The notes under the pieces: generated by a model
Database searches by the model: none
Seen by the model: only the letters and a program-made list of their open reading frames with translations
Told to the model about the DNA's origin: nothing
Shown: positions 8,404 to 56,244 of the stretch, piece by piece
Numbering within the stretch: the stretch's first letter is position 1
Layout: every line of letters begins with the position of its first letter
Made by a program: the position numbers and the translations under genes
From: an uncultured virus (IMG/VR IMGVR_UViG_3300025121_000020)
Lineage: Duplodnaviria; Heunggongvirae; Uroviricota; Caudoviricetes
Reading direction: 5' to 3' (one strand)
DNA: 64,000 bases
IMG/VR virus record: IMGVR_UViG_3300025121_000020

Positions 8404-8608
8404 CTGCTTCTCTCTACATACTACGTATGCGAAATACCTGTTTCCCAGGGCGGTCCAGATCGACCGGTCCCTCCGCAGGCGAATTAAGACCCCGACGAAG
8501 CCACTACCGGGATCACTGCGTTCAGATCTCGATCGTGCGTCGCCCCGCATCCCCCGCATGTCCACGATCGATCCTTCAGCTCCCAAGCATCGGAGCCTTG
8601 TATTCGAG
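8404..8608 (-). mobile_element. deleted IS607 derivative retaining the full omegaRNA scaffold and right end
   Basis: 8404-8523 matches 14300-14419; the rest matches tnpB 3' pieces joined at microhomologies. Confidence 0.92.
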
Positions 8609-8618
8609 CTCCTAGAGC

Positions 8619-8663
8619 AGGCTATCACACCTTTCTCAAAACATCAACATATTTTTATGATCT
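8619..8663 (-). promoter_or_regulatory. sigma70-like promoter TTGATG-17-TAGCCT upstream of the omegaRNA remnant
   Basis: -35 at 8647-8642, -10 at 8624-8619, extended TG, upstream ATCATAAAAAT. Confidence 0.65.
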
Positions 8664-8770
8664 TATCATAGGTAATCTACGATTTGAGCACCATCATCCA
8701 GAAACCCCTTGACACTTCCAGCCCCTCCCGTGCACTGTAAGGATAAGCTTGATACACCTACTCCGTACTT

Positions 8771-9034
8771 ATGAGGCACGTAATGCTGGCACCAGGCGAC
8801 TGCATAACATTCTCCGGGCACGAGTACATGCTCGTGAGTGATCCAGAGCTCCCGCGAGTCCGCGTGATCCCCCTCGAGTTTCGCTACCTGGAGTCGCACG
8901 ACGCTCCGGAGATCTACCTTCCGGTGACATCGGCGCTCGTGCCCCTCCCCGTTCCAAAAAGTCTGCGGGAGCTGGTCGACCGCCTCCGAAAGGTATGGCA
9001 ACCGTGCTGGGTGACAGGAACCTGCCCGGTCTGA
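8771..9034 (+). CDS. hypothetical protein
   Basis: ORF downstream of TTGACA (8709) promoter-like sequence. Confidence 0.5.
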   Translation: MRHVMLAPGDCITFSGHEYMLVSDPELPRVRVIPLEFRYLESHDAPEIYLPVTSALVPLPVPKSLRELVDRLRKVWQPCWVTGTCPV

Positions 9035-9125
9035 TAGTTTCAAGTAGCGCATTGTCTTCAATTGGCGCATCATTACGCTGAGGGAGGCAAGGGAGCACTA
9101 TGCGCGAGGAGACAGGAGTTGTGAA

Positions 9126-9626
9126 GTGTTCGACCCTACTGCCGGAGACCAGACCCTCAGCCGGATCTGGGAAATTTGGAACCGAGTGGGACTTGGGGGA
9201 GTGGTCTCCCTCGCGATCGCCGCGTCACTGTTGCGAGAAAAGGAGCGCCTCGCCGTCGGAAGGTACTTCGGAGGCATCCTCCGCTCCTGCGTCGACTGCT
9301 TCCTCCGCCTCGTCGATTCCCGAACGCGCGTCAACGAGGCCATTGAGAAACTCGCGGCATCCGAGCAACTGCGCACTCGTAGGGAAGCTCTTCGCACTAC
9401 TCTGGTGCCTGCTTCGACACAGACCCCACCCCCTCCTACAGCCTGCGATACGCTACCTGCAGACCAATACCAGCCAGAACCTACCCCTGCCCGCTTACCT
9501 ACACCGGGTACACTCCGTACGGCTGAGACGCCGCCGGCAAACGCTTACAGTGGTGTGGACGGTAGCGCTATTACTGTCTGTAGCACTAGTGACGACCGCG
9601 GTGGTTGGGGTGGCTCGGGCGGTTAG
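9126..9626 (+). CDS. membrane protein with Pro/Thr-rich tail (holin-like, tentative)
   Basis: SD AGGAG; hydrophobic VGLGGVVSLAIAASLL. Confidence 0.4.
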   Translation: MFDPTAGDQTLSRIWEIWNRVGLGGVVSLAIAASLLREKERLAVGRYFGGILRSCVDCFLRLVDSRTRVNEAIEKLAASEQLRTRREALRTTLVPASTQTPPPPTACDTLPADQYQPEPTPARLPTPGTLRTAETPPANAYSGVDGSAITVCSTSDDRGGWGGSGG

Positions 9627-9652
9627 AGTGGAAGGGGTGGGGATAGCGCAGG

Positions 9653-10144
9653 CTACCGAGTAGCCGCTTCGATCTGATCAAACGCCTCAAACACCTTCTC
9701 TCGGCTTCGCTCATCCAAAACGGCGAGCACCTGCCCCACCCCTCCCGCAAGATCAGCATTCACCCCGTAGGCCCTCACCCGCACGTACAGGGACGTCGGC
9801 ACCGCCTCCACCGGTGTCCCATCCGGACGCAAGCCGAAGTCCACGCCGATCGTAACTTCCGGGAAAACGGGGTGCTCTTCTCGAACGAGATGCAGAACCT
9901 GGCGCCCGTCCTTCGCGCGTTCGACCGCCGCGTGCCGCCAGAGAGGGTATGGCCCCTCCGGGAAAGAAGTGTGAACATCCTCCCAGAGCCTGTCATCCAC
10001 GTAAGCGGGCAAGTTCAGCGTGACCCTGGGTGCATCCGCTTGAACGCTCTCTGCAGCCTCCCGGACGTCTACGACTCCCTCACACCGAAAGATGTACATC
10101 GCTACTCCCCTTCCCATCGCGCCAAAAAGGCGTTGTGGTGACAC
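9653..10144 (-). CDS. hypothetical protein
   Basis: 163-aa ORF in minus-strand block. Confidence 0.5.
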   Translation of the reverse strand: MSPQRLFGAMGRGVAMYIFRCEGVVDVREAAESVQADAPRVTLNLPAYVDDRLWEDVHTSFPEGPYPLWRHAAVERAKDGRQVLHLVREEHPVFPEVTIGVDFGLRPDGTPVEAVPTSLYVRVRAYGVNADLAGGVGQVLAVLDERSREKVFEAFDQIEAATR

Positions 10145-10534
10145 CCGTTACTCTCGATCAGAGCCTTGAAGCTCTCTTCGATGTAGGCTGGAGCCTCCCC
10201 GCGACTCGCGCGCGCCTAGCTCTCCGCCTGCATGCCCATCGCCTCAACCATAGTCTGCACGGCTATGATGATACTGTAGGCGAATTCCTTCGCCTGATTC
10301 TCGTCCATACTCACCTCAAATCGACAATTGCCGCCGCCAGCACCGGATACTTCGCCCACTTCGTGGCGAAGGTCATGTAGTCCATGTCAGTACCGTAGTA
10401 ATCCCCTCTCATCTCGGCCAGGCGCTCAGGCGCCTTCACTGCCGCCAACTGGATGAACCGATACTCCCTCCCAAGGTCGCCTCTCAGGATGTCACGCGCC
10501 CTGGATACTCTGGAAGCTGCGCCACGTTCTAGCA

Positions 10535-11050
10535 TCACACCACCTCCCGCGCCGTTCCGTCCCAGCTCGAGCGGACCACACCACGGCGCTCAAGCTCCGC
10601 AATGAGCTGTTCGTCTGTGTAGCGCTTCAACCCGTCAAGGATGCTGTCTAGCACCGCAGGATCCAACGTAGCTTTCGCGGCTCCCTGGATCTGTAACGCA
10701 ACATTCAGCTTCCCCTGGACAACATCCAAAAACGTAGGTGAGCACTGATCGTATCCCGCGGACCACTTCCCGTCCTCTTCACTGAGAAGAGACCCCCCGA
10801 CATTTCGACAGGCGTACTCTTTGTCCCCGCTCTTCGCACTCCCATTCGGCGAACATCGAACCCGCACCGCGCCCGCCGGAAGATCCTGCTCCCCTTCGTT
10901 CAAAAATTCCCCCTGGAGAGCAAAGCCACCTTTCTGCGTCCGATCGATACCTGTCACAAGCTTCACCCAACCGACACGTCTCCCGGAACCGGTGGGCTTG
11001 GTGATGGTGATACGAACTTGAGCAACGCCGTTCCACTCTGTGATTTTCAT
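10535..11050 (-). CDS. hypothetical phage protein
   Basis: SD AAGGGAG; WVKLVTGIDRTQKGGFALQGEFL. Confidence 0.65.
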   Translation of the reverse strand: MKITEWNGVAQVRITITKPTGSGRRVGWVKLVTGIDRTQKGGFALQGEFLNEGEQDLPAGAVRVRCSPNGSAKSGDKEYACRNVGGSLLSEEDGKWSAGYDQCSPTFLDVVQGKLNVALQIQGAAKATLDPAVLDSILDGLKRYTDEQLIAELERRGVVRSSWDGTAREVV

Positions 11051-11123
11051 ACTACTCCCTTATTCCGGCCCAACTCCCCCACAGTATATCAACCCCACTA
11101 GGAGCCGAATGTACCTATGTTTC

Positions 11124-11564
11124 TTACGCCCTGAGCTCCCTCTCCACGTCGTCCCACCGCGAACCCAACAGCGCCCTGACAGCCGCGGCAGCCTTGACGC
11201 TGCCGTTCTTGTAGCGCTTCACCTGCCCGACGAACGAACCACGCTTCACGAGCGCGATCCCCTCCGCAACGTTCACCGTGATACTGGCCTCGATTGCCGG
11301 CCAGGTGTAGACCTGCCCGTCCACCTTCATGGCCAGAATACCCTCGACCGGAATGGCGCGGTATTCGCGCTTCTGGCAATCGAAAACCACGATCAGGTTC
11401 TCACCCGAAGCGTCGTACGCAGACTCCCCGCCCTGGAGGTGCTTCGTGACGCCCAAGCGGGCTACCATCTTGCGCTCGGTACCATCGGTGCGCTTCACGA
11501 ACGTGATGGAAAAGATCCTGCCGGAGCGAATGGAATCGATGATGAGCTTGCGATTACGGTCCAT
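11124..11564 (-). CDS. SH3/Sm-fold (WYL_2/DUF2693-like) phage protein
   Basis: FSITFVKRTDGTERKM...VVFDCQKREYRAI; SD GAGGAG; promoter upstream. Confidence 0.65.
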   Translation of the reverse strand: MDRNRKLIIDSIRSGRIFSITFVKRTDGTERKMVARLGVTKHLQGGESAYDASGENLIVVFDCQKREYRAIPVEGILAMKVDGQVYTWPAIEASITVNVAEGIALVKRGSFVGQVKRYKNGSVKAAAAVRALLGSRWDDVERELRA

Positions 11565-11599
11565 GGTTTCTCTCCTCAGTTCAGGTTGGAACTATCTTA

Positions 11600-11645
11600 G
11601 TTATAGTTGAAGAGAGAATAATTGTCAAGAGTATTTTTTAAGATT
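11600..11645 (-). promoter_or_regulatory. phage promoter AATCTTAAAAAAT-TTGACA-17-TATAAC
   Basis: near-consensus -35/-10 with the recurrent upstream element. Confidence 0.75.
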
Positions 11646-11667
11646 CGGTACACTTTCGCAGGAAAGC

Positions 11668-13278
11668 TCAGGCAGGCTCACTCGGGTAGTACCGCACCGA
11701 GATCTCCTTCTCATCCGTCGGCCTCGCCGACACCAGAATGATTCCCCTCTCTTTCGCCATCGCCGCGAACTCCTCCACCCTTCGTGGTGCGAGCGACGTG
11801 AGCCACGCCGCCTCCACGGCCATCACCCGCCCCGGAAAGGCCTGGATGCCGACGTCCAGCATCACCCGCGTCTGCTGTCCCTCGCTCAGGGACGGCTTCA
11901 CCGGGTCCGCGAACAGCTTCGTCTCCCCGTCCACCGTCGCGTACAACCGCCCACCATCGACCGTCAGCCCCGCCGGGATGCCCTTCCGACCCAACACCAC
12001 GCCGAGCTGGCCCTCGACGTCCTCCGCGACCTTCCGGTACTCTTTCCCGGACTGGACAGATGCCTCCGCATCCTTCGTCGCCGCAGCCTCGAGCACCTTT
12101 ACCACCGCAACGCGCTCATCGTGCGCTCGGACAGCCTCAGACGCCCCTTGCGCCGCACGAGCCCGCGACAGGTGGAGGGACGCACGGTCGGCCTCTTCCT
12201 TTGCCTGCTCAGCCTGTTCATCTGTGGGGAGATCCACGATCTCCTTGAACTGAGCCTGCGTGACGTCCCAGCGCCCCGCCTCCACCTCCACGCGTGCCCG
12301 GTTGGCTTGCATAGTCGCGAGACTCGCCTGCTCGACCCGCAGGCTCCCCCGCTGCCCCTCGACGTCCTGCGATGCCTTCGCGAGGTCCGCCTGGAGCTTG
12401 GCGATCTGCTCGCGGACCTTTCCCGCAGCAGCTTCCTTCCGCTCGAGCACGGCAGCGACGGTGGTCACCAGGTTGGCCTGTTCCGAGATGCCAGCGTCCA
12501 GACTCTCCGGCTTCGGCCTCTCCCCCAAGGTCCGCTTTACATCCTCAAGCTTCGCACGCCGCGAAGCCTGCAACTTCTTCTCCGCCGCCACCGCCGCAGC
12601 CGCGCGGGCGATTGCCTCGAGCGCCGTGCAATCCTCCCCCAGGTACATCACCAGTTCTTCGCCTACCTCCGGGGCAACCGCAGCCGCAATCGTCGCCCGA
12701 TGCACTTTCGCGGCCCCCGCCAGCTCCGCAGACTTCCGCTCTGCAGACAAAGCGAGCGCGTTCGCCTCGGTCTTTAGCGCCTCCTTGACGGTCAGAACGG
12801 GCTGCCCCGCCAGATTGGTCCCCGCAAGCTTCCCACACGAGAGGGTCTGGACGTCCCCCTCCGTCGCCGTGCCCGCCTCCGGGATCAGCGCGAACAGTGC
12901 CCGGATGCGCGCCTCGTCGGCGAGACCGGGATCCTTGACGCCGTTCCCGGTCAGGAAGCTGGTGAGCAAGTCCAAAGGTGCGATCGGGACACTCGCGACC
13001 ACCAGCTCACCCTTCTGCCTGGCAGAACGGATCAGGACACCTTTCCCCTCCTCAGCTACGTAGGCGGGAAGGGTCTTCGCCGTCCCGTCCGGGAGGCGGG
13101 CGACGTGTGCGTTGAGACGCCCCGCGCCAGATGTGGCGCAGACCAGGGCGTCCATGAGGTTGGTCTTCCCGAGGGCGTTGTCGCCCTCGAGAATGTTCCA
13201 ACCTGTTCGGAACGTGTAGGTGTGCTCGCCGGTGAGATTGCCGACGTTCGAGAATGTGTAGGTGATGGACGGTTGCAT
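11668..13278 (-). CDS. SMC/Rad50-like ABC ATPase with coiled coil
   Basis: Walker A GDNALGKT, long coiled coil, signature LSEGQ. Confidence 0.75.
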   Translation of the reverse strand: MQPSITYTFSNVGNLTGEHTYTFRTGWNILEGDNALGKTNLMDALVCATSGAGRLNAHVARLPDGTAKTLPAYVAEEGKGVLIRSARQKGELVVASVPIAPLDLLTSFLTGNGVKDPGLADEARIRALFALIPEAGTATEGDVQTLSCGKLAGTNLAGQPVLTVKEALKTEANALALSAERKSAELAGAAKVHRATIAAAVAPEVGEELVMYLGEDCTALEAIARAAAAVAAEKKLQASRRAKLEDVKRTLGERPKPESLDAGISEQANLVTTVAAVLERKEAAAGKVREQIAKLQADLAKASQDVEGQRGSLRVEQASLATMQANRARVEVEAGRWDVTQAQFKEIVDLPTDEQAEQAKEEADRASLHLSRARAAQGASEAVRAHDERVAVVKVLEAAATKDAEASVQSGKEYRKVAEDVEGQLGVVLGRKGIPAGLTVDGGRLYATVDGETKLFADPVKPSLSEGQQTRVMLDVGIQAFPGRVMAVEAAWLTSLAPRRVEEFAAMAKERGIILVSARPTDEKEISVRYYPSEPA

Positions 13279-13389
13279 TGCTGCCTCCCTGAAAGGTTTG
13301 GGGCAAAAGACTACTGTGAAGGAGTCTATAGAGGATAGAGATTAAAGTCAAGAAGATTTTTTAAGAGATTGTGCCTATATCTGACAATC

Positions 13390-14028
<639 letters not shown>

Positions 14029-14279
14029 GACCGGGCCTCATTGAACGCCTTGGAAACTACGTCCCGGTGAATGGTCTCTAGAGCAGCTTGGGTCAAGCAG
14101 ACATCCCGACCCCAGCGGTCCTCATTGTATCCGGAGAGGCCCGTAACTCCCAAACGCCGCGCCTCGAGCAACAACATGTGCTCACGAGCGCGCATCTTCT
14201 CGCTGCCACCGTACGCGTCAGAGACACGCGTCCAGTGCGCCTCCCAGGCACCGGCGAGTGAGCCTACCGCTGGAACATC

Positions 14280-14420
14280 GTCCTTCAAGGTACGCAATGC
14301 TGCTTCTCTCTACATACTACGTATGCGAAATACCTGTTTCCCAGGGCGGTCCAGATCGACCGGTCCCTCCGCAGGCGAATTAAGACCCCGACGAAGCCAC
14401 TACCGGGATCACTGCGTTCC
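14280..14420 (-). ncRNA. TnpB omegaRNA; guide starts at 14299 (CAUUGCGUACCUUGAAGG...)
   Basis: overlaps tnpB 3' end and right end; conserved in the other copies; GCUUC/GAAGC pseudoknot potential; 5' boundary approximate. Confidence 0.8.
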
Positions 14421-15483
14421 TGATGTTGATCGCGGCGTTCAGATCGCGATCGTGTATCGCCCCGCATCCCCCGCATGTCCACGATCGATCCTTCAGCTCC
14501 AGATCCTCTTTTTTCCATCCACAAGCTGAGCAAAGCTTACTCGACGCGAACCAGCGATCGACGACGACAACCCTACTCCCGAGCATCGGAGCCTTGTATT
14601 CGAGCTGCCTCCGGATCTCCCCGAAGGCAGCGTCGGCCAGGGATCGAGCTAAAGATCTCAGACCCGTCATCCCTCGCACATTCAGATCCTCGAGACCGAT
14701 CAAGTTGTGCTGTCTCACCAGCTCAGACGTCATCTTGTGAATGGCATCTCCCCGTTGGTCGGCCACCCGTGCGTACGCCCTCGCAACCCTGGCCTTGGCT
14801 TTCAGCCAGTTCGAAGAGCCCTTGACCTTGCGTGAGAGGGACCGCTGAAGTCCTCTCAATTTCTTCAGTGCCCCAGCGAGGTGTCGCGGGTTCTGGAAGC
14901 ACACGCCGTCCGAGCAGACGGCCAAAGTCTTCAATCCGAGATCGATCCCTACCGATCCACCTGGATGAGCTAGGGTACGGTTCGGCATCTCGACTTGAAT
15001 CGAGATCCACCAGTGCCCGGCCTTGAACGAGATCCGCCCAGAGAGGATTTTCCCGACGAAGCGAAGCACCTCCGCCATGTTGACGACGCCGATCAGCTTC
15101 TGGATCCGCAGTGCATGCCCGTCGACGTCGAACCGATCGTTCGCAAGGTAGAAAGTGGGCTTGCTCCGGTGCTTTGCCTTGAACTTCGGGTAGCCGACAC
15201 TCTTCATGCCGCGGAAAAAGTTCGCGAACGCCTTGCCGAGATCCGAGAACGCGCCCTCGACGGCGGACTTCGTGACGTCGTACGTCCAGGGGAATGCGGA
15301 TCCCTTGACCGCATTGAAGTCCTTCTTGAGACCCAGAGCGGACGGCTTGCCCCCGTCCTTATAGATCCGCTCCCACTCCGCCCGGCCCCAGTTGAAGGCG
15401 AAGCGAGCGATGCCACACGCCTGGCGGAAATAAGCCTCCTGATCGGGAGATGGGTTCAGGCGGATGCGGTGGGAGAGGATCAT
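14380..15483 (-). CDS. tnpB: RNA-guided endonuclease TnpB, catalytic residues intact
   Basis: RuvC GIDLG, LEDLNV, DRDLNAA; CSAC/CGGC zinc finger. Confidence 0.97.
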   Translation of the reverse strand: MILSHRIRLNPSPDQEAYFRQACGIARFAFNWGRAEWERIYKDGGKPSALGLKKDFNAVKGSAFPWTYDVTKSAVEGAFSDLGKAFANFFRGMKSVGYPKFKAKHRSKPTFYLANDRFDVDGHALRIQKLIGVVNMAEVLRFVGKILSGRISFKAGHWWISIQVEMPNRTLAHPGGSVGIDLGLKTLAVCSDGVCFQNPRHLAGALKKLRGLQRSLSRKVKGSSNWLKAKARVARAYARVADQRGDAIHKMTSELVRQHNLIGLEDLNVRGMTGLRSLARSLADAAFGEIRRQLEYKAPMLGSRVVVVDRWFASSKLCSACGWKKEDLELKDRSWTCGGCGAIHDRDLNAAINIRNAVIPVVASSGS

Positions 15484-16097
15484 TCTTTTGCCGATTCTAG
15501 CGCAGTTTTCAACGCTTTCTTGTAATTGCGTAAGCCATACAGACGAGAGGAAAAGCAGTGTACCACCGTCATCAGATCTTGAACCATTTCCTGCTCAGGG
15601 GATAATTTTTCAGAATTCAACACGCGAATGGCGCATTCGTGCGTGTGGCAATAGTGCTCAAACCACTCAAAGCCAAACCGACACAGGCGATCCTTGTGCG
15701 CAATGATCAAGTCTGAGATCTCACCTCGCCCGACGCGATCCATGATCTCGACGAATCGCTTTCGTCTCAAGTTCATCCCACCGCCGATTTCCTCCACGAA
15801 CTCCACACCGTCCAAACCGCTAGCTCCGCAAAAACCCTCTAACACCCCTCGTTGGTTCTTCAAGTCCGGTCTCTGCGCGTGAGAAGAGACCCGGCAGTAG
15901 GCGATGCATACCCGTACACAGGGAGAAGTCAGCCTACCCAAATAGGCGTCCAGAGACTGCTGCGCATATACACGCCTTCCGGAAGGAAGGCGTTCCGCGC
16001 GTAAGGATCCTTCCCGATCCCAACGTTGGAGAGTTTGCGGATGCTTACCTAGGTAAGCAGCGGCTTTTCCGAGAGAAAACATCTTCATAGAGACCAT
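15480..16097 (-). CDS. tnpA: IS607 serine transposase
   Basis: MerR-like HTH, YCRVSS catalytic motif, FSSRLYG. Confidence 0.97.
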   Translation of the reverse strand: MVSMKMFSLGKAAAYLGKHPQTLQRWDREGSLRAERLPSGRRVYAQQSLDAYLGRLTSPCVRVCIAYCRVSSHAQRPDLKNQRGVLEGFCGASGLDGVEFVEEIGGGMNLRRKRFVEIMDRVGRGEISDLIIAHKDRLCRFGFEWFEHYCHTHECAIRVLNSEKLSPEQEMVQDLMTVVHCFSSRLYGLRNYKKALKTALESAKE

Positions 16098-16370
16098 GAT
16101 AACATACTATTGCATACGTTGTCAAGAGCTAGATTAGCGCTCACATCTCCCCCACACGGTTCATGGCCGCCGCGTACCCCTCCGAGTACCCAGTAGACCA
16201 GCTCTTCTGCTTCCTGGTCAGCTTTTCACCGTCTGCTCGTCTCGAGACGAGAGCCATGTTGAAGATACTAAACTCAGTCGTGACACTTACCCCGAACTCG
16301 TACTCAAACGCGTAATTGAACGTTTCCACGAAACTGTCATTCAGCTTCTTTGCGATCTTCTGGGCTTTGC

Positions 16371-16721
16371 TCACAGTGCCTCCCTCATGTGTTTTATCAG
16401 ATCCACAATCGACAGGCGCGACTCCTCGTGTCCCGCCCGATTCCATCGCACCGCGTCTTCAACCTCTATCTTCTCACCTACTATCGAGACACCCGTCTCC
16501 AGGATGCGAGCCAACCGTTGTGGCCAACTTCTCATCCCATCCCGCCCATACTTCGCCTCGATGTATTCTTCCATACCTGCCTGACTGCTCGCAACGAAAA
16601 CGGGGGCGTCTACTACCTCCGACCACTCGAACCACACCTCTCCCTGCTCGTCCTTCAACCTACCAATAAAGCTGCCCATCCCTACCTCCACAAGACGCCC
16701 TTCCCCTCGCAAGCGGGGCAC
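16371..16721 (-). CDS. hypothetical protein
   Basis: likely start MGSFIG after GGAGG. Confidence 0.55.
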   Translation of the reverse strand: MPRLRGEGRLVEVGMGSFIGRLKDEQGEVWFEWSEVVDAPVFVASSQAGMEEYIEAKYGRDGMRSWPQRLARILETGVSIVGEKIEVEDAVRWNRAGHEESRLSIVDLIKHMREAL

Positions 16722-17068
16722 ATGAACCGCGCCTCCGGATCCCTCCGCTTGATGAACTCCGGAGGATCCACCTCCGTGAACCCCTCACATACCGAGCACA
16801 CGTGTGGCGACAGCGCAGCACCTCTCTTTCCGCACACAGGACACGTACAGGCTCCCTGAGCCTGTGGATCTCCCTTACCATCGCGTCGATCGTCTCCGCA
16901 GGAAGCTCAGACAACGCACGCGCCAATTGCTGCCCCTGCCTCTGCAGCCCCTCGGCCATACGGGGTGACATCCTTTCCTCTTTTTCAAAAGCAGAAAGAA
17001 ATCTCTTTCCGATACGGATCCACACGCCTAAACCGCCTTCAGGGTAGACACTGACGAGCCGCATTTCT

Positions 17069-17629
17069 CTACCTTTCCATTGAGGTGTTTAACACCCACC
17101 CCACCTGCACGGCAATAGCCTTCTGAATGTCTCTCAGCCTCGCAATCAGCTCTTCTTTTCGCCCTGCGCGTAGGAGGCGCCCTCCCTCTCTTACCCCCGC
17201 TACCCTCCCCCGCAAAAACTGCAGGAGATCCCCCGTGAACCCGCTCACTCCTTCCATAACTGTCTGAAGCCTCCGCAGGTCACGCTGACACTCCCTCGCT
17301 TGTGCCAACCAGTCCCCACCAAGAACAGCAGCCTCGCTCAATCCCACCCCCCGCCCCAGGCACACCGCCCATGAGAAAATCTCCCGCACGTCCATCTCCC
17401 AGACTACTCCAGGAGGGAGACTCTCGCGAAAGAGTCTCTTTTTCTTCTCGTGCAGAAAGGCATCTTCGAATTGGCGCGTCATTACGTCCTCTAGCCGATC
17501 ATCCGTCACACCGAAAGCTACCGCATGCGGGTGGACGCCTCCTGCTGGTAAGGACGCCACCCACTGCTTAGCATGCTCACGGCACTGCTGAGCCTCTTGT
17601 GCGGTCAATTTTACTAGTTCATCCCTCAT
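17069..17629 (-). CDS. hypothetical protein
   Basis: SD GAGGGAG; 186 aa. Confidence 0.6.
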   Translation of the reverse strand: MRDELVKLTAQEAQQCREHAKQWVASLPAGGVHPHAVAFGVTDDRLEDVMTRQFEDAFLHEKKKRLFRESLPPGVVWEMDVREIFSWAVCLGRGVGLSEAAVLGGDWLAQARECQRDLRRLQTVMEGVSGFTGDLLQFLRGRVAGVREGGRLLRAGRKEELIARLRDIQKAIAVQVGWVLNTSMER

Positions 17630-17976
17630 GTTCGCTCTCCCTCAATCCGGATCCCCAACTACCGTGTAGGAAAACACCCTCCCTGTGCGAAAGTACGTAA
17701 CCGTACGCGACCTCTCCTTCCCCCACTGCCCAAAAATCACAGGAGGAATTTCCCCCTCAACTACTGCATACCCCGCCGTACCAAAGGTATGCCCTGTGAC
17801 ACGCTGGATATCACGGCAAACTCGGCGCGCCAGCCATGCCCCTACCTCCGTGCCAAACTGCTGACTGATGTAGCGTACTATGGCGTCATAGTGCTCAGGG
17901 TTCCGCTTCACCCTAGGAAACTCGACAGGAATGCTACGATCGTACGGAGTACCCACATCTGGTGCTGGTACCAGCT

Positions 17977-19512
17977 TCACACCCACCCCTTCACCAGCAA
18001 CTGTATGCTTTTCATCCCGTTCCACTCGTTCCACTGCGGCTGGAACACTACCCTCTCGCCCCCCTCCCCCTTCCCCTTCCCCGGATAGAACCACATCGCC
18101 GTCCGCGTCCCCGTGCCGTCACGCAGCGTCAACCTCTGGTGCCCTCCCCGCACCTCTCTCCTGTCCGCCACCTCCGCCGCGCAACAGAACAGCGGCGCGG
18201 GGTTCCCCTCCCCCGTCGGCTCGAGCGCGTCCAGTACCGACATCAGAGCGGGGTCTACCTCCCCAAGGGAGATCTCGTGCACATCCGTGACGGCCTCCGG
18301 GATCTCCGCCCGCGCCACGATCTCCGCGAAGCGCTTCCGGAACTCCCCTAGCTTGGCGTACTGCACGTTGCATCCCGCGGCGCGAGCGTGCCCCCCGGAC
18401 CGCTCGAGCACGTCGGAGCACTCGGCCAGTGCCCCGCGCACGTCGAACCCCTCCGGCGCCCTGGCGGACCCCGCGCACGGATCCGAGCGCGTGGACACGA
18501 CGACGCTGGGCAGCCCCGTGCGCTCGCACAACTTACCAGCGATGATACCGACTACGCCAGGATGCCAGTCCCCGGAGACGACCGGGGCCGGGTTCGCCCC
18601 GATCTGCTCGAGGATCTCCTTCTCCACCTCCCGCCTCTCCCTGTTGCACGCGTCCAGCTCCTCTGCCGCCGCCACTGCCACGCGCCTGTCCCGCGACGTC
18701 AAACACCGGAAGGCCATGTCCGGACCGCGCAAGCGCCCGGCAGCGTTGACGCGCGGCGCCACCTGGAATGCGACGTCAGACGCGCGCGTTCGCCCCTCCA
18801 TGAGATAGGCAAGTCCGGGAAAGGACGACTTGTGCCGGATCCCCTCTCGCACAAGGAGGCGATTCACCCCCCGCAGGGGCACGACGTCCGCCACCGTGGC
18901 GACCGCAGCGTGCGTCAGCAAATCCGATAAGAGATCCTTCCCCGTCCCAGCCCGTCTGAGCAGTGCCCAAGCGAGGAACCACGCGACCCCCGCTCCGCAC
19001 AGCCCCGCGTGAGCGACTGAACGGGCAGGATGAAGCCACGGACAGGGAGGCTCCGCGTCGTAAGCATGGTGGTCCGTCACGATGACAGGGTGACCAGCCG
19101 CTAGGAGAGCGCGCACTTGCTCAGGCTGTGCAACACCGCAGTCGACGGTCACGACGACGCCCCCCGGGGGCAACCGGTCGACGCACCGATCAGCGCGCAA
19201 CCCGTACCCGTCATGCTCGCGGTCCGGAAGGTGTACCAGGACATCCGCTCCCAAGTGCTGCAGCGCGAGCATCAGGATAGCCGACGCGCACACGCCGTCA
19301 CAATCATAGTCCCCGTGGATCAGGATGGGGGTGTGGTCGAGGATAGCGGTCTCGAGCTGCTCGCAGACATCCAGCATGCCAGGGAGGGAGAAAGGGTCCG
19401 GGAGAGAGCGCAGGGTGGGGTAGATTTCCAGGTCAACAGGAGGCTGGAAAGGGGGGAGGATTTTGTAAATCAAGGTGTTACCTCGCCAACGTGATACCCG
19501 CCCAACCCCCAC
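17977..19512 (-). CDS. recJ: ssDNA exonuclease RecJ (DHH family); true start uncertain
   Basis: HGDYDCDG, TVDCG, TDHH, APRVNAAGRL, GSARA, GGHARAAG. Confidence 0.95.
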   Translation of the reverse strand: MGVGRVSRWRGNTLIYKILPPFQPPVDLEIYPTLRSLPDPFSLPGMLDVCEQLETAILDHTPILIHGDYDCDGVCASAILMLALQHLGADVLVHLPDREHDGYGLRADRCVDRLPPGGVVVTVDCGVAQPEQVRALLAAGHPVIVTDHHAYDAEPPCPWLHPARSVAHAGLCGAGVAWFLAWALLRRAGTGKDLLSDLLTHAAVATVADVVPLRGVNRLLVREGIRHKSSFPGLAYLMEGRTRASDVAFQVAPRVNAAGRLRGPDMAFRCLTSRDRRVAVAAAEELDACNRERREVEKEILEQIGANPAPVVSGDWHPGVVGIIAGKLCERTGLPSVVVSTRSDPCAGSARAPEGFDVRGALAECSDVLERSGGHARAAGCNVQYAKLGEFRKRFAEIVARAEIPEAVTDVHEISLGEVDPALMSVLDALEPTGEGNPAPLFCCAAEVADRREVRGGHQRLTLRDGTGTRTAMWFYPGKGKGEGGERVVFQPQWNEWNGMKSIQLLVKGWV

Positions 19513-19678
19513 CCGGGCAAGAGCGCCCCCAGCTTCTCCCTGAGCTGACTACCCGCAATCGCATCCGCAATCGGATCCGCTGAGAGGTCAACTTCCGTCG
19601 TCCCGTACAAGACCCGGATCCGCTTCTTCCGATGCGGCTCCCGCTCAGAACGGGTGAGCATGTACTTCACGGTGTAGG

Positions 19679-19915
19679 TCATCTCACCGGTCCCCGATGC
19701 CCCTGCATCCTTCGAACGACAGGTCGAATCGCGAGATCCCACATCAGCGCAGACACCATGACCCCCGCGACGACCGCCGGCGGAATCCAGATCGGGGACA
19801 CCACCCACCAGACGGACCACGCGATCACCCCCGCGATGCGGAAGGCGACGAACAGAAGAGTCAGCACCAAGCAGAAGATGAAACTCACGAGCGCAAGCAA
19901 CTGATCGAAACGCAT
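19679..19915 (-). CDS. small membrane protein
   Basis: GVIAWSVWWVVSPIWIP with two hydrophobic helices; SD GGAGG. Confidence 0.7.
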   Translation of the reverse strand: MRFDQLLALVSFIFCLVLTLLFVAFRIAGVIAWSVWWVVSPIWIPPAVVAGVMVSALMWDLAIRPVVRRMQGHRGPVR

Positions 19916-20323
19916 GTCTACCTCCCTTACGAAAAGTTATTGCGCCTCTCCCTTGCTCCCCGGGTGAGGCTAGGTACAGGGTGACGAGCCCGCGTCACAC
20001 CGGAGTTCCGATCGGGACGCTCCCCGACCGTTCCTCCCGCTGGGCTCGTAGACAGGCTCTCCCTGGCGCGCTAGAATCCGGCAGGCTCACGCGTTGACCG
20101 CTTTCGACGTACCGCGTGAACCAGAGCATGCGCAGGAGCCGCCCCCGCGCCCGCGTGACGACACGCACCGCCTCGTGCTCTTCCCCGGTTCGGGGACGCG
20201 TCGTCATCAGAAGAGCGGTCCGTGGCGCATACCTCACCTGCCTGTGTGAGTGACAGGAGAGTAGCAGCGCCGCGGCGAGCATGCGAAGCCAAAAGAGCAC
20301 TCGATCAACCTTCCAGGATACGA

Positions 20324-20386
20324 ACCCAAAGGTATGCAAAATACCTATTTCTCGGGGCGGTCCAGATCGACCGGTCCCTCCGCAGG
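20324..20386 (-). mobile_element. degenerate omegaRNA fragment (IS607 relic)
   Basis: ~60 bp similar to 14320-14376 and 55894-55956; both element ends lost. Confidence 0.8.
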
Positions 20387-20818
20387 AATGAAATCCGACT
20401 CCTTCGCCAAAAGTAGACTCATAAGAAGTAAGCTCTGCACCTTCGCTTTGCCGACGCTGTGCCCGCTTGGCGCGTGTGCAGGCTCCGCTGTCGGCTCCGC
20501 TGTCGGCTCCGCTGTCGGCTCCGCTGTCGGCTCCGCTGTCGGCTCCGCTGTCGGCTCCGCTGTCGGCTCCACCAGCGTCATACTATACCTCTGCCTCTGC
20601 CTGCACGCCTCCCGATACGAGACCATGTCCGTGAACTCAGCATCCCCTGTCTCCCGCCTCTTGAACAGGTTCGCAGGCAAGAACGCCGTGAAGATCAGCA
20701 CAGGCTGCATACGGTGCACCCCGTCCTCTCCCCTTACGTCCCGATCCTGGTAGATGTCCCGCTTGACCGCCAGCGGGAGGCCATGCGCCCTACGATACTG
20801 GAGTTCTCTGCTCGTCAT
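20345..20818 (-). CDS. hypothetical protein with (EPTA)n repeat
   Basis: 157 aa; 12-bp repeat x7.5 at 20481-20570; stop codon lies in the omegaRNA relic. Confidence 0.5.
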   Translation of the reverse strand: MTSRELQYRRAHGLPLAVKRDIYQDRDVRGEDGVHRMQPVLIFTAFLPANLFKRRETGDAEFTDMVSYREACRQRQRYSMTLVEPTAEPTAEPTAEPTAEPTAEPTAEPTAEPAHAPSGHSVGKAKVQSLLLMSLLLAKESDFIPAEGPVDLDRPEK

Positions 20819-20959
20819 TTGGTCTCCATTTGGTCTCCATAGATTGGAAGCGCCGCCGTAGCTGCCGATTGTAACCTCACAAGGAGAGTGCGGTGCTTCC
20901 TGAAAAGGAGTATCTCAGATGTTGATACTGAAGTCAAGAAGATTTTTTAAGAAATGATT

Positions 20960-21172
20960 TCAAAAACGATCGTCGTCTACCTTATCGTTTTCTGTCGGAA
21001 ACAGGGTGATCAGCATCCCCTCCCCCGACATCCGCCAGTCGAGGACCACCCCAGGATCGAGCCTGACGGACAAGGACCCACCTTCGTTCACCCAAGCACA
21101 TCCCATCCTGCCCCCGGAACCCTTCTCCCCTTTTGGCTTGACTTTCAGAATGTAATCAGGCTTTCGTGACAT
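20960..21172 (-). CDS. small DUF736-like protein (tentative)
   Basis: RMGCAW..EGGSLSVRLD pattern. Confidence 0.45.
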   Translation of the reverse strand: MSRKPDYILKVKPKGEKGSGGRMGCAWVNEGGSLSVRLDPGVVLDWRMSGEGMLITLFPTENDKVDDDRF

Positions 21173-21433
21173 ACTCTATCCTCAACCAGCTCTCAATGCT
21201 CTGCAGCGTTCTATCCCTCCCCCGCACCTCTTCCGGAGTCCGTGCGCGCCGCTGAACCTTCTTAATATCAAGCTCCCTTCGCCGCGCGTATCCCCTCAAA
21301 CATTGCGGGCAGAACGCGCGCCCCGAAACGAAGCCCCACCCCCGCGCCTGCTGCTCACGCGCGAATTCCCAGATGTCGGCACGCCCCGGGGGTTCTTGGA
21401 CGACGCGGGCACACTTGCAACACTGGAGGTTGA

Positions 21434-50582: not shown

Positions 50583-50599
50583 GTGTGCCCCATCTAGTA

Positions 50600-50690: not shown

Positions 50691-50714
50691 TTAACTCTTT
50701 GGAGGGAAAAAGCA

Positions 50715-54336: not shown

Positions 54337-55479
54337 ATGGCAGACGTATCGTTGATGATCCCCGGGCAAACCGGGGTCGTCGAATTCGATGAAGACAACA
54401 TCTCTTCACAGGGGGTGCAGACCGTCGAGAACATCCCCAGTTCCACGCGCATTCCGCGCGTCCTTCTCCTGACTACGAATTCTGGACTCCATGCCACCGC
54501 GGGATTCGCTCCCGGTACGTGGGCGTTGGGCGGGAAGATTCCCCGACCGATCACGAGTGACCCCGAAGCTCCGTTCCTGTTCGTGGTATCGGCGATCCGG
54601 CACCTGCAGGTTCGGCAGAACCCCTTCGACGCCCCCGTCGACAAAAGCAAGGTTCTCTGTGCGGGGTTCTGGGACGCTGAAAAAGGCAATTTCAGCGCTA
54701 TCGTCCCGGGAGGTATTCAGTCTCCATCCAACCAGGGGTTGCTCGCCCGGACGGAAAAGAAGCCTATCAAGGGCTCGAAGAAGATGGAGGACGTCCTGTC
54801 CGGGTGGGAGTTCCCAGAAGACTGTGAGCCTACCACTGACTGTGCACGATGTCTCTACGGGCCAGGACGCAACCCGAAGGCTCGTCCCGGTGATCGCGGG
54901 TTCTTGCCAAAGAACTTCAAAGCCGTCACGAAGGAAGGGATCGTACTCGAGTGCGCCGTACCGGACGACCTCCGGAAACCCGGGAAGACGGACTGCGCAG
55001 TGACGATCGCAGTGATCGGGCACATCGCGGTGCCTGGGTACGACGGTGCGCCGTCGGAGTGGCTTCCGGGTAAGCTGGTCTTCAAGTCGACCGGGTTCGC
55101 GGCGGGTCAAGCTCTTGACAACCTGATCAAGAGCTGGGTTCGTGACACCACCAAGGCGCCGTGGAGCTACATGGTACTGGTAGGGTCGTCTGCGAAAACA
55201 AACGCAGGCGGTGTCAGCTACCGAGCCGTCGAGTTCCTCGGCCCGCACAAGGCCAAAGACACGACGGGCAAGGAGCGACCCGTTTCAACACCGGGGCCGA
55301 AGGCGGAGGCGGCAGGGAAGACGAACGTGCAGGCTATGGCGCGGGCGCTGGCGGAAGGGCTCGAGGATGCGGACTGGATCGGCGGGCTCGAAGATGATGA
55401 CGGAACGGAGCGGCCGCTGGACGAGGACGCGCGGGAGATGGCGGGAAGTGTGGAGGAGCCTGCGGATCAGGCGTACTGA
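54337..55479 (+). CDS. hypothetical replication protein with acidic tail (possible SSB/annealing protein)
   Basis: SD GAGGTG; very acidic C-terminus; upstream of pol module. Confidence 0.55.
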   Translation: MADVSLMIPGQTGVVEFDEDNISSQGVQTVENIPSSTRIPRVLLLTTNSGLHATAGFAPGTWALGGKIPRPITSDPEAPFLFVVSAIRHLQVRQNPFDAPVDKSKVLCAGFWDAEKGNFSAIVPGGIQSPSNQGLLARTEKKPIKGSKKMEDVLSGWEFPEDCEPTTDCARCLYGPGRNPKARPGDRGFLPKNFKAVTKEGIVLECAVPDDLRKPGKTDCAVTIAVIGHIAVPGYDGAPSEWLPGKLVFKSTGFAAGQALDNLIKSWVRDTTKAPWSYMVLVGSSAKTNAGGVSYRAVEFLGPHKAKDTTGKERPVSTPGPKAEAAGKTNVQAMARALAEGLEDADWIGGLEDDDGTERPLDEDAREMAGSVEEPADQAY

Positions 55480-55496
55480 GGTTACCAACCATCAAC

Positions 55497-55672
55497 GAAC
55501 CGTCCGGCATCAGGTGAGCCGGAAGTCCCGACCTAGCCCAATCGGGCGGGTGACTCGATTCATCCCAGTCCCCGGCTATGTCCCGTGAAACGGGAAGTGA
55601 GTTCGTACACACGACGCGTCCCTCGCATGAAATCAGGAACTGAACGCGTCGCTGGGGATCAGGGTTTATTTT
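55497..55672 (+). ncRNA. unassigned structured RNA (partly related to copies A/B)
   Basis: several nested stems; shares TCCCGAC..ATCGGG..CGGGTG with A/B. Confidence 0.55.
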
Positions 55673-55674
55673 TC

Positions 55675-55836
55675 GGCAGGGAGCGCTCCCGACTCCCCAC
55701 TGACGAAACATCGGGAGGGCGGGTGGCACCGCGCGCTTTTTATAGACCTTTGGAGCAAAGCAGCCAAACCGAAGGATGCTGGCAAGAGCATCCTTTGACC
55801 CAGCGGGGGAGGCCGCGTGCCTGACAGCGGGATTTT
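55675..55836 (+). ncRNA. unassigned pseudoknotted RNA, copy A
   Basis: paralog of 56291-56448 with stems preserved despite sequence change. Confidence 0.75.
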
Positions 55837-55849
55837 ACTACTCAGGGAG

Positions 55850-55972
55850 CGCTAATCTAGCCCCGGTAGTGGCTTCGTCGGGATCTTAATTCGCCTGCGG
55901 AGTAATCGGTCGATCTGGACCGCCCCGGGAAACAGGTATTTCGCATACCTTTGGGTATGTAGAGAGAAGCAG
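55850..55972 (+). mobile_element. 123-bp IS607 mini-element: left tip + omegaRNA scaffold/right end
   Basis: GAG|CGCTAATCTAGC identical to IS left end; ends GTAGAGAGAAGCAG. Confidence 0.93.
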
Positions 55973-55980
55973 GATTCCAG

Positions 55981-56244
55981 ATGGACGACATGCACATTCG
56001 CGACGCTCTGCAAGCTTTCAAGCGGTCTGCGGAAGTTGGGGTCGAGGAAATAGAACGGAACCGCTGTAGAGTCGAGAACGGGTGGCTCGTGCTCCAGAAG
56101 AGTGGGAAGCCGCACACGGCTTCTGACGGCGTAGAATACGCCCCGCTCGATCCGATCGTGTACTTCGACGAGTTTTTCGCCAGAGTCGTGGCGAAGTCGA
56201 TCGAGGGGTCGGTGGTGACGGTGAGAGAGTATTTGGAGGGGTGA
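55981..56244 (+). CDS. hypothetical protein
   Basis: 87 aa; SD reconstituted when the mini-element is removed. Confidence 0.65.
   Translation: MDDMHIRDALQAFKRSAEVGVEEIERNRCRVENGWLVLQKSGKPHTASDGVEYAPLDPIVYFDEFFARVVAKSIEGSVVTVREYLEG

Follow-up and report, generated by a model that had tools for sequence, protein, structure and literature searches.

An intact IS607 element and gene-less remnants with predicted omegaRNA scaffolds in a phage-like genome

The 64,000-nt stretch of uncultured-virus DNA analysed here (the window) contains one intact IS607-family element and exactly three partial copies, hereafter remnants 1, 2 and 3. Remnants 1 and 3 each end in a complete predicted omegaRNA scaffold fused to its own flank, and we propose, with a probability of roughly 0.4, that these two are non-autonomous homing cassettes riding on the one TnpB, a reading in which their transcription, loading, cleavage and homing are what we infer. 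We observed the anatomy and ends of the copies, TAM-like motifs in their flanks and a polymorphism between IS-present and IS-free alleles.

Census of IS607 copies in the window

Comparison of positions 14200-16250 with the window by blastn returned the query itself, an 18-nt palindrome and four further matches: 14300-14500 with 8404-8583 (88%, E 7e-74), 14576-14606 with 8580-8610, 14296-14407 with 55976-55862 on the opposite strand (90%, E 1e-39) and 14321-14375 with 20332-20386 (93%, E 2e-17). An nhmmer profile of the four right ends identified the same four places (E 2e-40 to 4e-26), its seven other matches having E values of at least 1.2. Both searches confirm the inventory in the initial annotation, an intact element plus three remnants, whose coordinates were right to within a few bases. 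Searches by tblastn with TnpB and TnpA revealed no extra coding fragments in the window except inside remnant 1, and blastn-short with the left end found a 15-nt left terminus at 55847-55861 and nothing else in the window; left-end-only or internal-only IS607 pieces are absent from the window. The copies fall into two sub-lineages, A (the intact element and remnant 1) and B (remnants 2 and 3), and all four are co-oriented with their flanking genes. Distances of 6-35 kb separate them and each has one would-be guide, taken from its flank, so that they do not form a CRISPR array.

14300-16142, minus strand: intact IS607-family element with tnpA and tnpB; ends set where remnant 1, remnant 3 and the IS-free allele stop matching
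15480-16097, minus strand: tnpA, 205-aa serine recombinase with N-terminal MerR-type HTH (NCBIfam NF033518; Pfam Resolvase, MerR/HTH_17)
14380-15483, minus strand: tnpB, 367-aa predicted RNA-guided nuclease (Pfam OrfB_IS605, Cas12f1-like_TNB, HTH_OrfB_IS605)

The intact element

TnpA matched the IS607 family transposase equivalog NF033518 at 188.6 bits (cut-off 110), and tnpB directly follows tnpA on one strand, overlapping it by 4 nt, as in other members of the IS607 family. TnpB scored 297 bits against NCBIfam guided_TnpB (cut-off 100) and aligned with ISDra2 TnpB (PDB 8bf8) over its full length (residues 7-359, E 7e-64); the TnpB-type chain of PDB 9yyg lines up with its GIDLG, LEDLN and HDRDLNAA motifs and its two pairs of CxxC. 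The RuvC motifs and zinc-ribbon expected of a TnpB are present. The D, E and D residues of the DLG, EDLN and HDRD motifs are presumably the catalytic positions (D191 apart). D191 of ISDra2 TnpB has been named as catalytic (PMC8612924/PMC10097598). Judging from the equivalog and full-length protein matches, the element looks active; it is of a known kind and provides a tidy, testable example from a phage-like genome.

The right end of the element is at 14300 (RNA sense ...GAGAGAAGCAG) and the left end, GAGCGCTAATCTAGC..., occupies 16142-16128. The terminal sequences GAGCGCTAATC... and ...GAGAAGCAG do not form inverted repeats, the two flanks are unrelated, and the dinucleotide AG flanks the element at both junctions and recurs at remnant 3 and in the IS-free allele. 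Thus, the element shows the IS607-family traits of lacking terminal inverted repeats and a target-site duplication while sharing one core dinucleotide at both junctions. IS607 elements are described as terminating in and inserting at GG (review PMC13565253; Cbo data bioRxiv 10.1101/2023.11.20.567912), a rule that is not followed here, where the core is AG at the element, remnant 3 and the IS-free allele and is preceded by a G-rich NGAG motif. Because the transposase is an equivalog match, we regard the AG core as a variant of the GG rule and not as a ground for exclusion.

A predicted omegaRNA scaffold at the right end

14300-14410, minus strand: predicted omegaRNA scaffold of ~111 nt, from an MFE fold read against the solved ISDra2 omegaRNA plan

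The predicted scaffold shares the last 30 nt of tnpB. In the MFE fold, stem 1 pairs -111..-104 with -92..-85, its loop GCUUC (-98..-94) is complementary to GAAGC (-7..-3), which predicts a pseudoknot, and inner stems and a terminal hairpin (-31..-8) precede the 3' terminus GCAG. The solved ISDra2 omegaRNA has a 116-nt scaffold with stem 1 at -116..-111/-91..-86 and a pseudoknot of -105..-103 with -5..-3 (PMC8612924/PMC10097598). By this analogy, the right end is predicted to be an omegaRNA scaffold of ISDra2-like layout, a model that combines one MFE fold (z about 0) with the ISDra2 plan and found no support from covariation or from an Rfam match. The likeness to ISDra2 TnpB-omegaRNA extends from the full-length protein match to the predicted scaffold length (116 versus ~111 nt) and the predicted stem-1-loop/3'-end pseudoknot; by contrast, ISDra2 belongs to IS200/605, uses a Y1 transposase and recognises TTGAT as its TAM, the two RNAs share no detectable similarity in sequence, and the structure here is a prediction (PMC8612924, PMC10097598).

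The terminal hairpin reads GCAUAC-GUA-GUAUGU in the intact element and remnant 1 and GCAUACC-UUUG-GGUAUGU in remnant 3. These sequences had been read correctly, and they had been taken to vary while keeping their pairing. However, both arms are identical between the two forms and the loop alone differs, by a single indel event that adds a C:G pair; the difference is therefore a loop change and not covariation, and the hairpin of remnant 2 carries two mismatches. RAGATH-18 of Rfam, reported as an IS607 TnpB omegaRNA (PMC13565253) and suggested earlier as a comparison, does not match here: its covariance model gave no match at the gathering score in the whole window, none within 14200-14700 with the threshold relaxed to E 10, and none in 5 distant TnpB loci searched to E 0.1. 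Promoter searches around the four copies returned no consensus promoter.

TAM-like flanks and an IS-free allele

14280-14299, minus strand: would-be guide of the intact element (CATTGCGTACCTTGAAGGAC), adjoining the right end

Allowing as many as 3 mismatches over 20 nt, this guide has no second occurrence in the window. The three available left flanks all conform to NGAG, being TGTGAG at the intact element, AGGGAG at remnant 3 and ACGGAG in the IS-free allele, and the right end terminates in AAGCAG; at the sequence level, the left-flank motif is therefore absent from the right-end terminus, as expected of a TAM. The predicted TAM "...GAG" fits these three independent flanks. A G versus a C at -3 would separate target from self, in the manner of TGGG versus TCGG in CboIStron.

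The IS-free allele was found in contigs of two public runs, X12 and X14, in which ACGGAG is directly followed by the guide-matching flank; in both, homology breaks exactly at 14301, with unrelated sequence beyond. A contig internal to the IS and the remnant 1 deletion joint were likewise present in X12, so that the element and a target-like allele occur together in at least one of the communities sampled. Strain variants ~95% identical co-occur within the same runs. The search for empty alleles thus succeeded for the intact element, with a TAM-like motif in place, and not for the remnants: no remnant-free allele of any remnant was seen in contigs of the public runs.

Two remnants retain the predicted scaffold and one is decaying

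8404-8610, minus strand: remnant 1, A-lineage deletion derivative delimited by blastn and alignment; would-be guide 8384-8403
20312-20406, minus strand: remnant 2, B-lineage fragment overlapping the 3' end of ORF 20345-20818
55847-55972, plus strand: remnant 3, B-lineage internal-deletion derivative, a 15-nt left terminus (55847-55861) joined to ~110 terminal nt of the right end

The last 115 nt of the right end are preserved without change in remnant 1 (8404-8518 = 14300-14414, 115/115 identical). Beyond the scaffold, 21 bp have been lost between GCGTTC repeats; the next 65 nt carry 3 substitutions and are followed by a second deletion, of 75 bp at a CTCC microhomology, and by a final 31 nt with a single substitution. 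The left end is at best a degenerate TCTAG-containing stretch. Changes therefore number 0/115 in the scaffold versus 4/96 in the other retained pieces (Fisher p=0.041; Poisson P(0)=0.008). In remnant 3, the deletion stops within 3 nt of the base of predicted stem 1, and the loop GCUUC and the 3' GAAGC-AG are kept. Its differences from the intact element lie mostly at -67, -66, -64 and -44, the position of ISDra2 stem 3b, and in the hairpin loop; the predicted stem -69..-66/-47..-44 can no longer form in it, and stem 1 is weakened at its base. Stem 3b of ISDra2 can be deleted (PMC8612924/PMC10097598). Remnant 2 retains a 55-nt core (51/55 identical to the element) and no left end; its 5' third has diverged, the 11 nt of right-end terminus that would adjoin the guide are gone, and the pseudoknot partner is absent. 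It looks like a dead fragment. Thus, the statement that each remnant spares the scaffold holds for remnants 1 and 3 and fails for remnant 2, and the guides at three or more loci reduce to two possible extra guides.

A possible, if not quite probable, account is that all three remnants are inert scars, neutral leftovers whose right ends were kept by chance, by where microhomology happened to lie or through harm to the adjacent gene start. Indeed, the state of remnant 2 shows that remnant decay does occur here, and direct repeats or microhomology flank both remnant 1 deletions, so that the position of the 21-bp deletion, between 6-nt direct repeats, may be mechanical. Right-end retention alone is also not statistically striking (~0.14 for remnant 3 and ~0.5 for remnant 1 under a uniform split of retained length), and 6 annotated phage records held 3 right-side partial copies versus 1 left-side or flank repeat, which is no clear bias. 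Neutral decay accounts less well for the unchanged scaffold of remnant 1 against the substitutions alongside it (p=0.04), and for two independent deletion series that both end no more than ~8 nt from one predicted scaffold boundary.

We consider it improbable that the remnants persist as drive-resistant alleles, in which any remnant, by parting TAM from target, would make its locus immune to a relative's TnpB-omegaRNA with no need of remnant RNA function; exact loss of the remnant would restore a cuttable site. Every remnant, even the degenerate remnant 2, still interrupts its original site, Cbo TnpA excision is reported to regenerate a TAM + target joint that TnpB cuts (bioRxiv 10.1101/2023.11.20.567912), and the coexistence of IS-free and IS-bearing contigs in X12 accords with such resistance. 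However, this explanation predicts neither whole-scaffold retention nor the perfect identity of remnant 1, and none of the contigs shows a full-length element at a remnant site.

Remnant 3 lies in a 5' leader

55675-55846, plus strand: repeated intergenic unit directly upstream of remnant 3; paralogue at ~56291-56470

The paralogue of this unit continues unbroken into the Shine-Dalgarno and GTG start of ORF 56476-57321, which places remnant 3 within a 5' leader, where it splits a Shine-Dalgarno (empty site CAGGGAG|GATTCCAGATG). The would-be guide of remnant 3, 55973-55992 (GATTCCAGATGGACGACATG), includes the ATG of ORF 55981-56244, and the right-end terminus supplies part of the Shine-Dalgarno before that ATG (GCAG|GA). 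This contribution gives a non-RNA reason for retaining the extreme right end and favours the inert-scar explanation; yet a gene-start constraint accounts for ~10-20 nt, not 110. The same arrangement could mean that the right-end RNA in the leader, or TnpB bound to it over the Shine-Dalgarno and start codon, tunes the downstream gene. Remnant 1 and the intact element likewise abut the 5' ends of co-oriented ORFs, but such placement follows from a G-rich, Shine-Dalgarno-like target motif alone and the downstream genes are without known function; we therefore rate cis-regulatory co-option as very improbable.

Both remnant 3 junctions appear as loose contig ends in 4/4 public runs examined. In X14, both junctions are present with zero depth over 14588-15922 and no tnpA/tnpB contig, although contigs cannot prove absence. 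Remnant 3 thus appears to persist there without this TnpB, as inert scars would, which argues against obligate co-inheritance of the nuclease and its guides as a single system.

Possible use of remnant guides in trans

Our preferred reading of remnants 1 and 3 as homing cassettes would run as follows. Old IS607 copies (A giving remnant 1, B giving remnants 2 and 3) would have shrunk in situ by microhomology deletions that took away almost all but the right end, leaving remnants 1 and 3, inside phage transcription units, each with a predicted omegaRNA gene that is still complete and runs directly into the flank of that remnant. Read-through transcripts would be processed and then loaded in trans by the single TnpB; the loaded complexes would cut remnant-free alleles (NGAG, then the flank) of co-infecting relatives, and recombinational repair would copy the remnant into the cut allele. 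When the omegaRNA is provided on a second plasmid, TnpB remains functional (PMC8612924/PMC10097598), which makes cis-only loading unlikely and trans use of the remnant guides biochemically plausible. Against this, remnant 3 is of the B lineage and the sole TnpB of the A lineage.

The trans-guide idea itself is not new: trans-acting gene-less omegaRNA elements (bioRxiv 10.1101/2023.03.14.532601) and phage/plasmid homing (PMC13565253) are in print. It was proposed for the gene-less IS605 elements called PATEs in Geobacillus stearothermophilus, which also carry omegaRNAs; these are IS200/605 derivatives on a bacterial chromosome, with both hairpin ends and mobilisable by TnpA(Y), whereas the remnants here lie in a phage-like genome (bioRxiv 10.1101/2023.03.14.532601). 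Remnants 1 and 3, and not remnant 2, share with PATE/MITE-like elements the gene-less state and a predicted omegaRNA-coding right end, and none of the three keeps both ends, remnant 3 having 15 nt of the left. Since Cbo TnpA requires ~40 bp at the left end and 60 bp at the right (bioRxiv 10.1101/2023.11.20.567912), remnant 3 can, by analogy, probably no longer be mobilised, which would leave homing as its sole means of spread. Remnants 1 and 3 would then be the IS607/phage counterpart of omegaRNA-bearing PATEs, with remnant 2 dead.

As is seen or predicted for the element here, CboIStron combines a serine-recombinase TnpA with TnpB, a right-end omegaRNA that runs over the 3' end of tnpB, a core dinucleotide shared by the two junctions, a TAM that equals the transposase target motif and self/non-self discrimination at -3 (TGGG versus TCGG in Cbo, NGAG versus GCAG here). 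The element here differs in having no group I intron, an AG instead of a GG core and a phage replicon, and the CboIStron report did not treat gene-less IS607 deletion derivatives, the question at issue (bioRxiv 10.1101/2023.11.20.567912).

It is rather unlikely, in our estimation, that phage IS607 copies are whittled to bare, non-transposing omegaRNA-plus-guide cassettes that spread and persist on TnpB borrowed from any full copy in the same cell. If they were, one nuclease gene would drive biased inheritance or rival exclusion at several phage loci, and the result would be a naturally occurring multi-guide state that needs no array, intermediate between a solitary TnpB and an arrangement of the CRISPR type.

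The distributed guide system of the initial annotation survives as an active-looking IS607 with two complete predicted scaffolds abutting their own flanks, and not, on these observations, as a benefit to the phage over selfish hitch-hiking. A multi-locus exclusion or homing weapon, in which one TnpB and several minimal guide cassettes act against sister phages for phage benefit, shares its anatomy with the homing-cassette reading; the co-occurrence of ~95% identical strain variants in the same runs speaks for it, and marker exclusion by phage homing endonucleases is established (PMC13565253). However, no more than two additional guides appear intact, the remnants derive from two lineages and separate decay events and not from an organised set, remnant 3 occurs without TnpB in X14, and guides fixed to their own insertion sites would hit only alleles without that remnant. 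Phage benefit is not distinguished from selfish spread, and we judge such a weapon quite improbable.

TnpB-driven IS605 spread among plasmid copies, and "transposon non-restorative homing", likewise involve cutting of an empty orthologous site on a co-resident replicon, into which the element is copied; this was demonstrated for full IS605 on plasmids and is not known for phages, IS607 or omegaRNA-only remnants (PMC11870625; review PMC13565253). The review lists co-infecting phages or plasmids as theoretical targets (PMC13565253). The free-standing phage homing endonucleases SegF and SegB cut a polymorphic site of a co-infecting relative with co-conversion of flanks, using protein-based recognition with one enzyme per site, where here RNA guides fixed by the insertion site would serve (PMC13565253). 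Their likeness here is a mosaic boundary exactly at the element, the IS-free allele having a different left neighbour.

The intact IS607 and its ends

The initial annotation described an intact IS607 accompanied by three remnants with different deletions, and blastn, nhmmer, tblastn and a left-end search all bear this out: they concur on exactly three further IS607 pieces in the 64 kb, and none detected a left-end-only or internal-only IS fragment in the 64-kb window. The ends of the intact element (hereafter IS) were set by where its match to two partial copies, rem1 and rem3, and to an IS-free allele stops.

The IS607 copies of the window
14300-16142, minus strand: intact element (IS), A lineage
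15480-16097, minus strand: tnpA, IS607 transposase equivalog (189 bits, cut-off 110)
14380-15483, minus strand: tnpB (Pfam OrfB_IS605, TNB and HTH)
14300, minus strand: right end, ...GAGAGAAGCAG
16142-16128, minus strand: left end, GAGCGCTAATCTAGC
8404-8610, same strand as the IS: rem1, A lineage
20312-20406: rem2, B lineage, 55-nt core (51/55 identical)
55847-55972, plus strand: rem3, internal-deletion derivative, B lineage

The encoded TnpB matches ISDra2 TnpB over its full length (E 7e-64), and the two proteins line up at the DLG/EDLN/HDRD and CxxC motifs. Both IS junctions carry AG, whereas GG is the usual IS607 core dinucleotide (PMC13565253; bioRxiv 10.1101/2023.11.20.567912); with AG the element deviates slightly from the family rule. 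The left flank is TGTGAG at the IS and AGGGAG at rem3, and the right-end terminus reads AAGCAG. In CboIStron, another member of the family, the target-adjacent motif (TAM) is reported as TGGG and the right-end terminus as TCGG, position -3 telling self from target (bioRxiv 10.1101/2023.11.20.567912). The same logic recurs here as NGAG versus GCAG, and NGAG is our candidate TAM. A perfect 18-nt palindrome (TACCTAGGTA core) lies at 16042-16059, within the 5' part of tnpA close to the left end.

Three partial copies from two sub-lineages

Rem1 is identical to the IS over 115 of 115 positions (IS 14300-14414). Beyond this stretch it has a 21-bp deletion between GCGTTC direct repeats followed by 65 nt with 3 substitutions, and its outermost part consists of a 75-bp deletion at CTCC microhomology followed by 31 nt with 1 substitution. 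Changes thus number 0/115 versus 4/96 (Fisher p=0.041). On its left side, a TCTAG-containing stretch and a TGTGA motif are similar to the IS left junction and may be a degenerate left end. In rem3 the exact left terminus (15 nt) is fused to the right end, of which the terminal ~110 nt remain. Rem2 is eroded: its right end falls 11 nt short of the terminus, the terminal hairpin has two mismatches and the 5' third has diverged.

The IS and rem1 share the hairpin loop GUA, and rem2 and rem3 share CUUUGG and one further substitution. Because the loops split the copies in this way, two IS607 sub-lineages, A and B, visited the genome; the window contains no full-length parent for rem2 and rem3. The terminal hairpin had also been said to vary while keeping its pairing. 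The difference is real, but it amounts to a single indel in the loop that leaves both arms as they were, so there is no covariation. With up to 3 mismatches allowed over 16-20 nt, the guides had no second target in the window; the query for rem3 began 4 nt too far in.

A predicted omegaRNA scaffold in rem1 and rem3

No Rfam family reached its gathering score in the window; this includes RAGATH-18, with which a comparison had been suggested and which gave no match. Over 14200-14700 the only Rfam hit was a chance match to RCNMV (E 1.2), and five distant TnpB loci returned a single tRNA and nothing else. Since no Rfam family applies and the minimum free energy (MFE) is no better than that of shuffled sequence (z 0.1 to 0.3), the scaffold is a model that we infer.

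Predicted scaffold features (MFE fold)
-111..-104/-92..-85: predicted stem 1, 8 bp
predicted loop: 11 nt, contains GCUUC, complementary to GAAGC at -7..-3
predicted inner stems: three
-31..-8: predicted terminal hairpin

This layout coincides with that of the solved ISDra2 omegaRNA, for which the reports give a 116-nt scaffold, stem 1 at -116..-111/-91..-86, a pseudoknot pairing -105..-103 in the stem-1 loop with -5..-3, and a dispensable stem 3b at -70..-49 (PMC8612924, PMC10097598). On the model, rem1 would retain the whole scaffold. Rem3 would retain it from the base of stem 1, with five contiguous pairs followed by a mismatch and a G:U, and with both predicted pseudoknot partners and the GCAG terminus intact. 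Its substitutions are at -87, -67, -66, -64, -44 and in the hairpin loop, most of them in a segment whose position corresponds to that of the dispensable ISDra2 stem 3b. Rem2, which is missing the stem-1 side and the 3' terminus, would have neither a pseudoknot nor a defined guide.

The anatomy of the copies is secure; the function of the remnants is not. Our leading reading, to which we assign a probability of roughly 40%, is that rem1 and rem3 are non-autonomous homing cassettes that borrow TnpB, each omegaRNA with its own flank serving as a guide for a nuclease encoded elsewhere. In its favor, the rem1 scaffold is perfect beside mutated junk, two independent deletion series end at the predicted scaffold boundary in a type of genome that sheds junk, and the 3' termini and pseudoknot partners are intact. 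Loading of omegaRNA in trans is moreover already known: TnpB is reported to function with omegaRNA from a separate plasmid (PMC8612924, PMC10097598). The idea of trans guides is itself in print, proposed for omegaRNA-carrying PATEs (bioRxiv 10.1101/2023.03.14.532601). Against trans guides, rem2 has decayed, an inner stem of rem3 is broken and rem3 belongs to a foreign lineage, the statistics are weak, and microhomology sets the deletion sites. That the remnants are inert scars is a serious, if somewhat doubtful, possibility, and the locus would then be no more than a trace of ordinary IS607 decay in a phage genome.

An IS-free allele in a related strain

The stretch 7500-17000 occurs in 15 public runs, which come from 6 studies; 11 of the runs contain at least half its words, and none of the 15 is listed as an RNA run. 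The contigs of four runs were compared with 13520-21500. Two of these, X12 and X14 (two samples of one study), contain a strain with about 2-6% differences from the window. Its contigs match as far as 14301, beyond which they run on for another 497 and 322 nt that resemble nothing in 13520-21500; in the RNA sense, the allele reads ...CACTACGGAG and then directly CATTGCG.... Empty alleles had been proposed as something to look for, and these contigs supply one for the IS site: the sequence reads as an IS-free allele in which a TAM-like GGAG abuts the flank that matches the IS guide.

The region 16143-16990 has little or no depth in X12 and X14, and the IS-free allele has another left neighbour. 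This places the IS exactly on a mosaic boundary: the strain lacks it, and has lost or replaced ~0.85 kb to its left; homing-endonuclease islands are likewise located at mosaic boundaries. In this ~95%-identical strain the missing or replaced ~0.85 kb corresponds to the small ORFs 16141-16446, 16371-16721 and 16660-17064. X12 also yielded a 255-nt IS-internal contig and the joint of the 75-bp deletion of rem1, so this one run gave assemblies of the IS-free allele as well as of IS sequence.

Both junctions of rem3 were present in all four runs, and depth in X14 was zero over 14588-15922. It thus seems that rem3 can be maintained in a strain lacking this tnpA/tnpB, although contigs show presence, not absence; its occurrence without TnpB in X14 counts against trans guides. 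With IS-bearing and IS-free sequence found side by side, the remnants might also be drive-resistant alleles, which we consider improbable. An X14 contig joint, 20327 to 20490, skips rem2 but was rejected as an empty site for it; one side spans only 30 nt and part of the rem2 hairpin is kept.

The copies lie at gene starts

All four copies have the same orientation as the surrounding genes and lie just upstream of a co-oriented ORF, an orientation that favors trans guides. Upstream of rem3 is a ~170-190-nt intergenic unit (55675-55846) with a paralogue 600 nt downstream (56291-56470), which leads without a break into ORF 56476-57321 through its Shine-Dalgarno and start. The two unit copies are 77-81% identical, share the 21-nt exact core GACCCAGCGGGGGAGGCCGCG and are each followed by a plus-strand gene; the unit is probably a promoter or leader element that the phage carries as a repeat. 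Comparison with the paralogue indicates that rem3 inserted into the Shine-Dalgarno of ORF 55981-56244, the putative empty site being CAGGGAG joined to GATTCCAGATG. The right-end terminus of rem3 now completes a substitute Shine-Dalgarno, GCAG followed by GA. Because the target motif is G-rich and Shine-Dalgarno-like, the elements land at gene starts and the would-be guides span translation start regions.

The substitute Shine-Dalgarno provides a non-RNA reason for keeping the extreme right end and so weighs against trans guides. Co-option of the remnants as cis-regulatory sequence would fit such a role, an explanation that we regard as very improbable. Scans for consensus promoters and terminators near all four copies gave nothing on the relevant strands.

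Partial copies in other phages

Phages commonly carry TnpB genes: among 50,697 phage records, 415 match the TnpB of the window, every one at <60% identity. A census of partial copies covered six annotated phage records.

Copies found in the census
LR745208.1, 459955-460755 and 409416-409556: two 3'-side partial copies, from the 3' part of tnpB
NC_048757.1, 61996-62094 and 65015-65113: 99-nt exact direct repeat, left end or flank repeat
NC_048757.1: 46-nt piece spanning the tnpB stop
NC_048756.1: second full copy, diverged

LR745208.1, a 485-kb uncultured phage, has the closest phage-borne TnpB (40.6% identity) and also a full element; one of its partial copies (81% identical) runs ~150 nt beyond the tnpB stop. 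The 99-nt repeat of NC_048757.1 brackets a 2.9-kb gene, gp086, immediately upstream of an IS607 tnpA. OR529409.1, OX241455.1 and MG592553.1 had no convincing partial copy. No clear right-end bias emerged among the six records, a point against trans guides from a sample too small to show or deny such a bias.

The initial annotation had proposed that one TnpB and several dispersed guide cassettes form a multi-locus homing or exclusion drive against sister phages. Its observation is confirmed and its interpretation is supported in part only; an exclusion system acting at the level of the phage seems unlikely to us. A 2026 review (PMC13565253) gives the name non-restorative homing to the TnpA-independent spread of IS605 between plasmid copies by TnpB, and lists co-infecting phages as targets in theory only. 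Our limited literature search found no paper that describes phage remnants of IS607 reduced to the omegaRNA. Should TnpB load rem1 and rem3, this phage would be a natural and compact example of a single TnpB that serves several fixed guides, would contain omegaRNA-only elements spreading purely by homing, and would offer a concrete setting for non-restorative homing between co-infecting phages. Trans guiding and phage homing are both directly testable: the ends are defined, NGAG is a candidate TAM, the sequences of three guides are known, and a target allele exists in nature, IS-free with a TAM-like motif at the guide match.

Genome setting

The window is phage-like, with Pfam matches in 11 of 38 long ORFs (among them DNA polymerase A, a RecJ-type DHH nuclease, two helicases, a Dam methylase, a 5'-3' exonuclease, a hydrolase and both IS genes) and PHROGs matches in 8 of 29 ORFs, including terminase large (E 1e-6) and small (E 6e-11) subunits, DNA polymerase (E 3e-36) and primase (E 2e-4). 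No close relative was found among the 50,697 phage records (terminase identity 25-29% at best), megablast of the IS against phage records gave no match, and a viral contig collection had no match to the scaffold pattern, TnpB, DNA polymerase or RecJ-like gene. Genome contigs yielded only five TnpB relatives (32-36% identity), with right ends too distant for alignment. The five loci from a metagenome scan were all the window's own phage (97-100% identity) with identical elements.

Tandem repeats are dense at 13369-13749, right of ORF 11668-13278, and translate as AAQQLSSS and GWLA units, one per strand; a tandem repeat also lies within 13390-13511. Near-identical metagenome contigs differ in length: there is a 23-bp indel at 7023-7045 and an in-frame 21-bp indel in the RecJ-like gene (18393-18413), and the PT-repeat ORF 20345-20818 shows both a deletion of 12 nt and an insertion of 24 nt.
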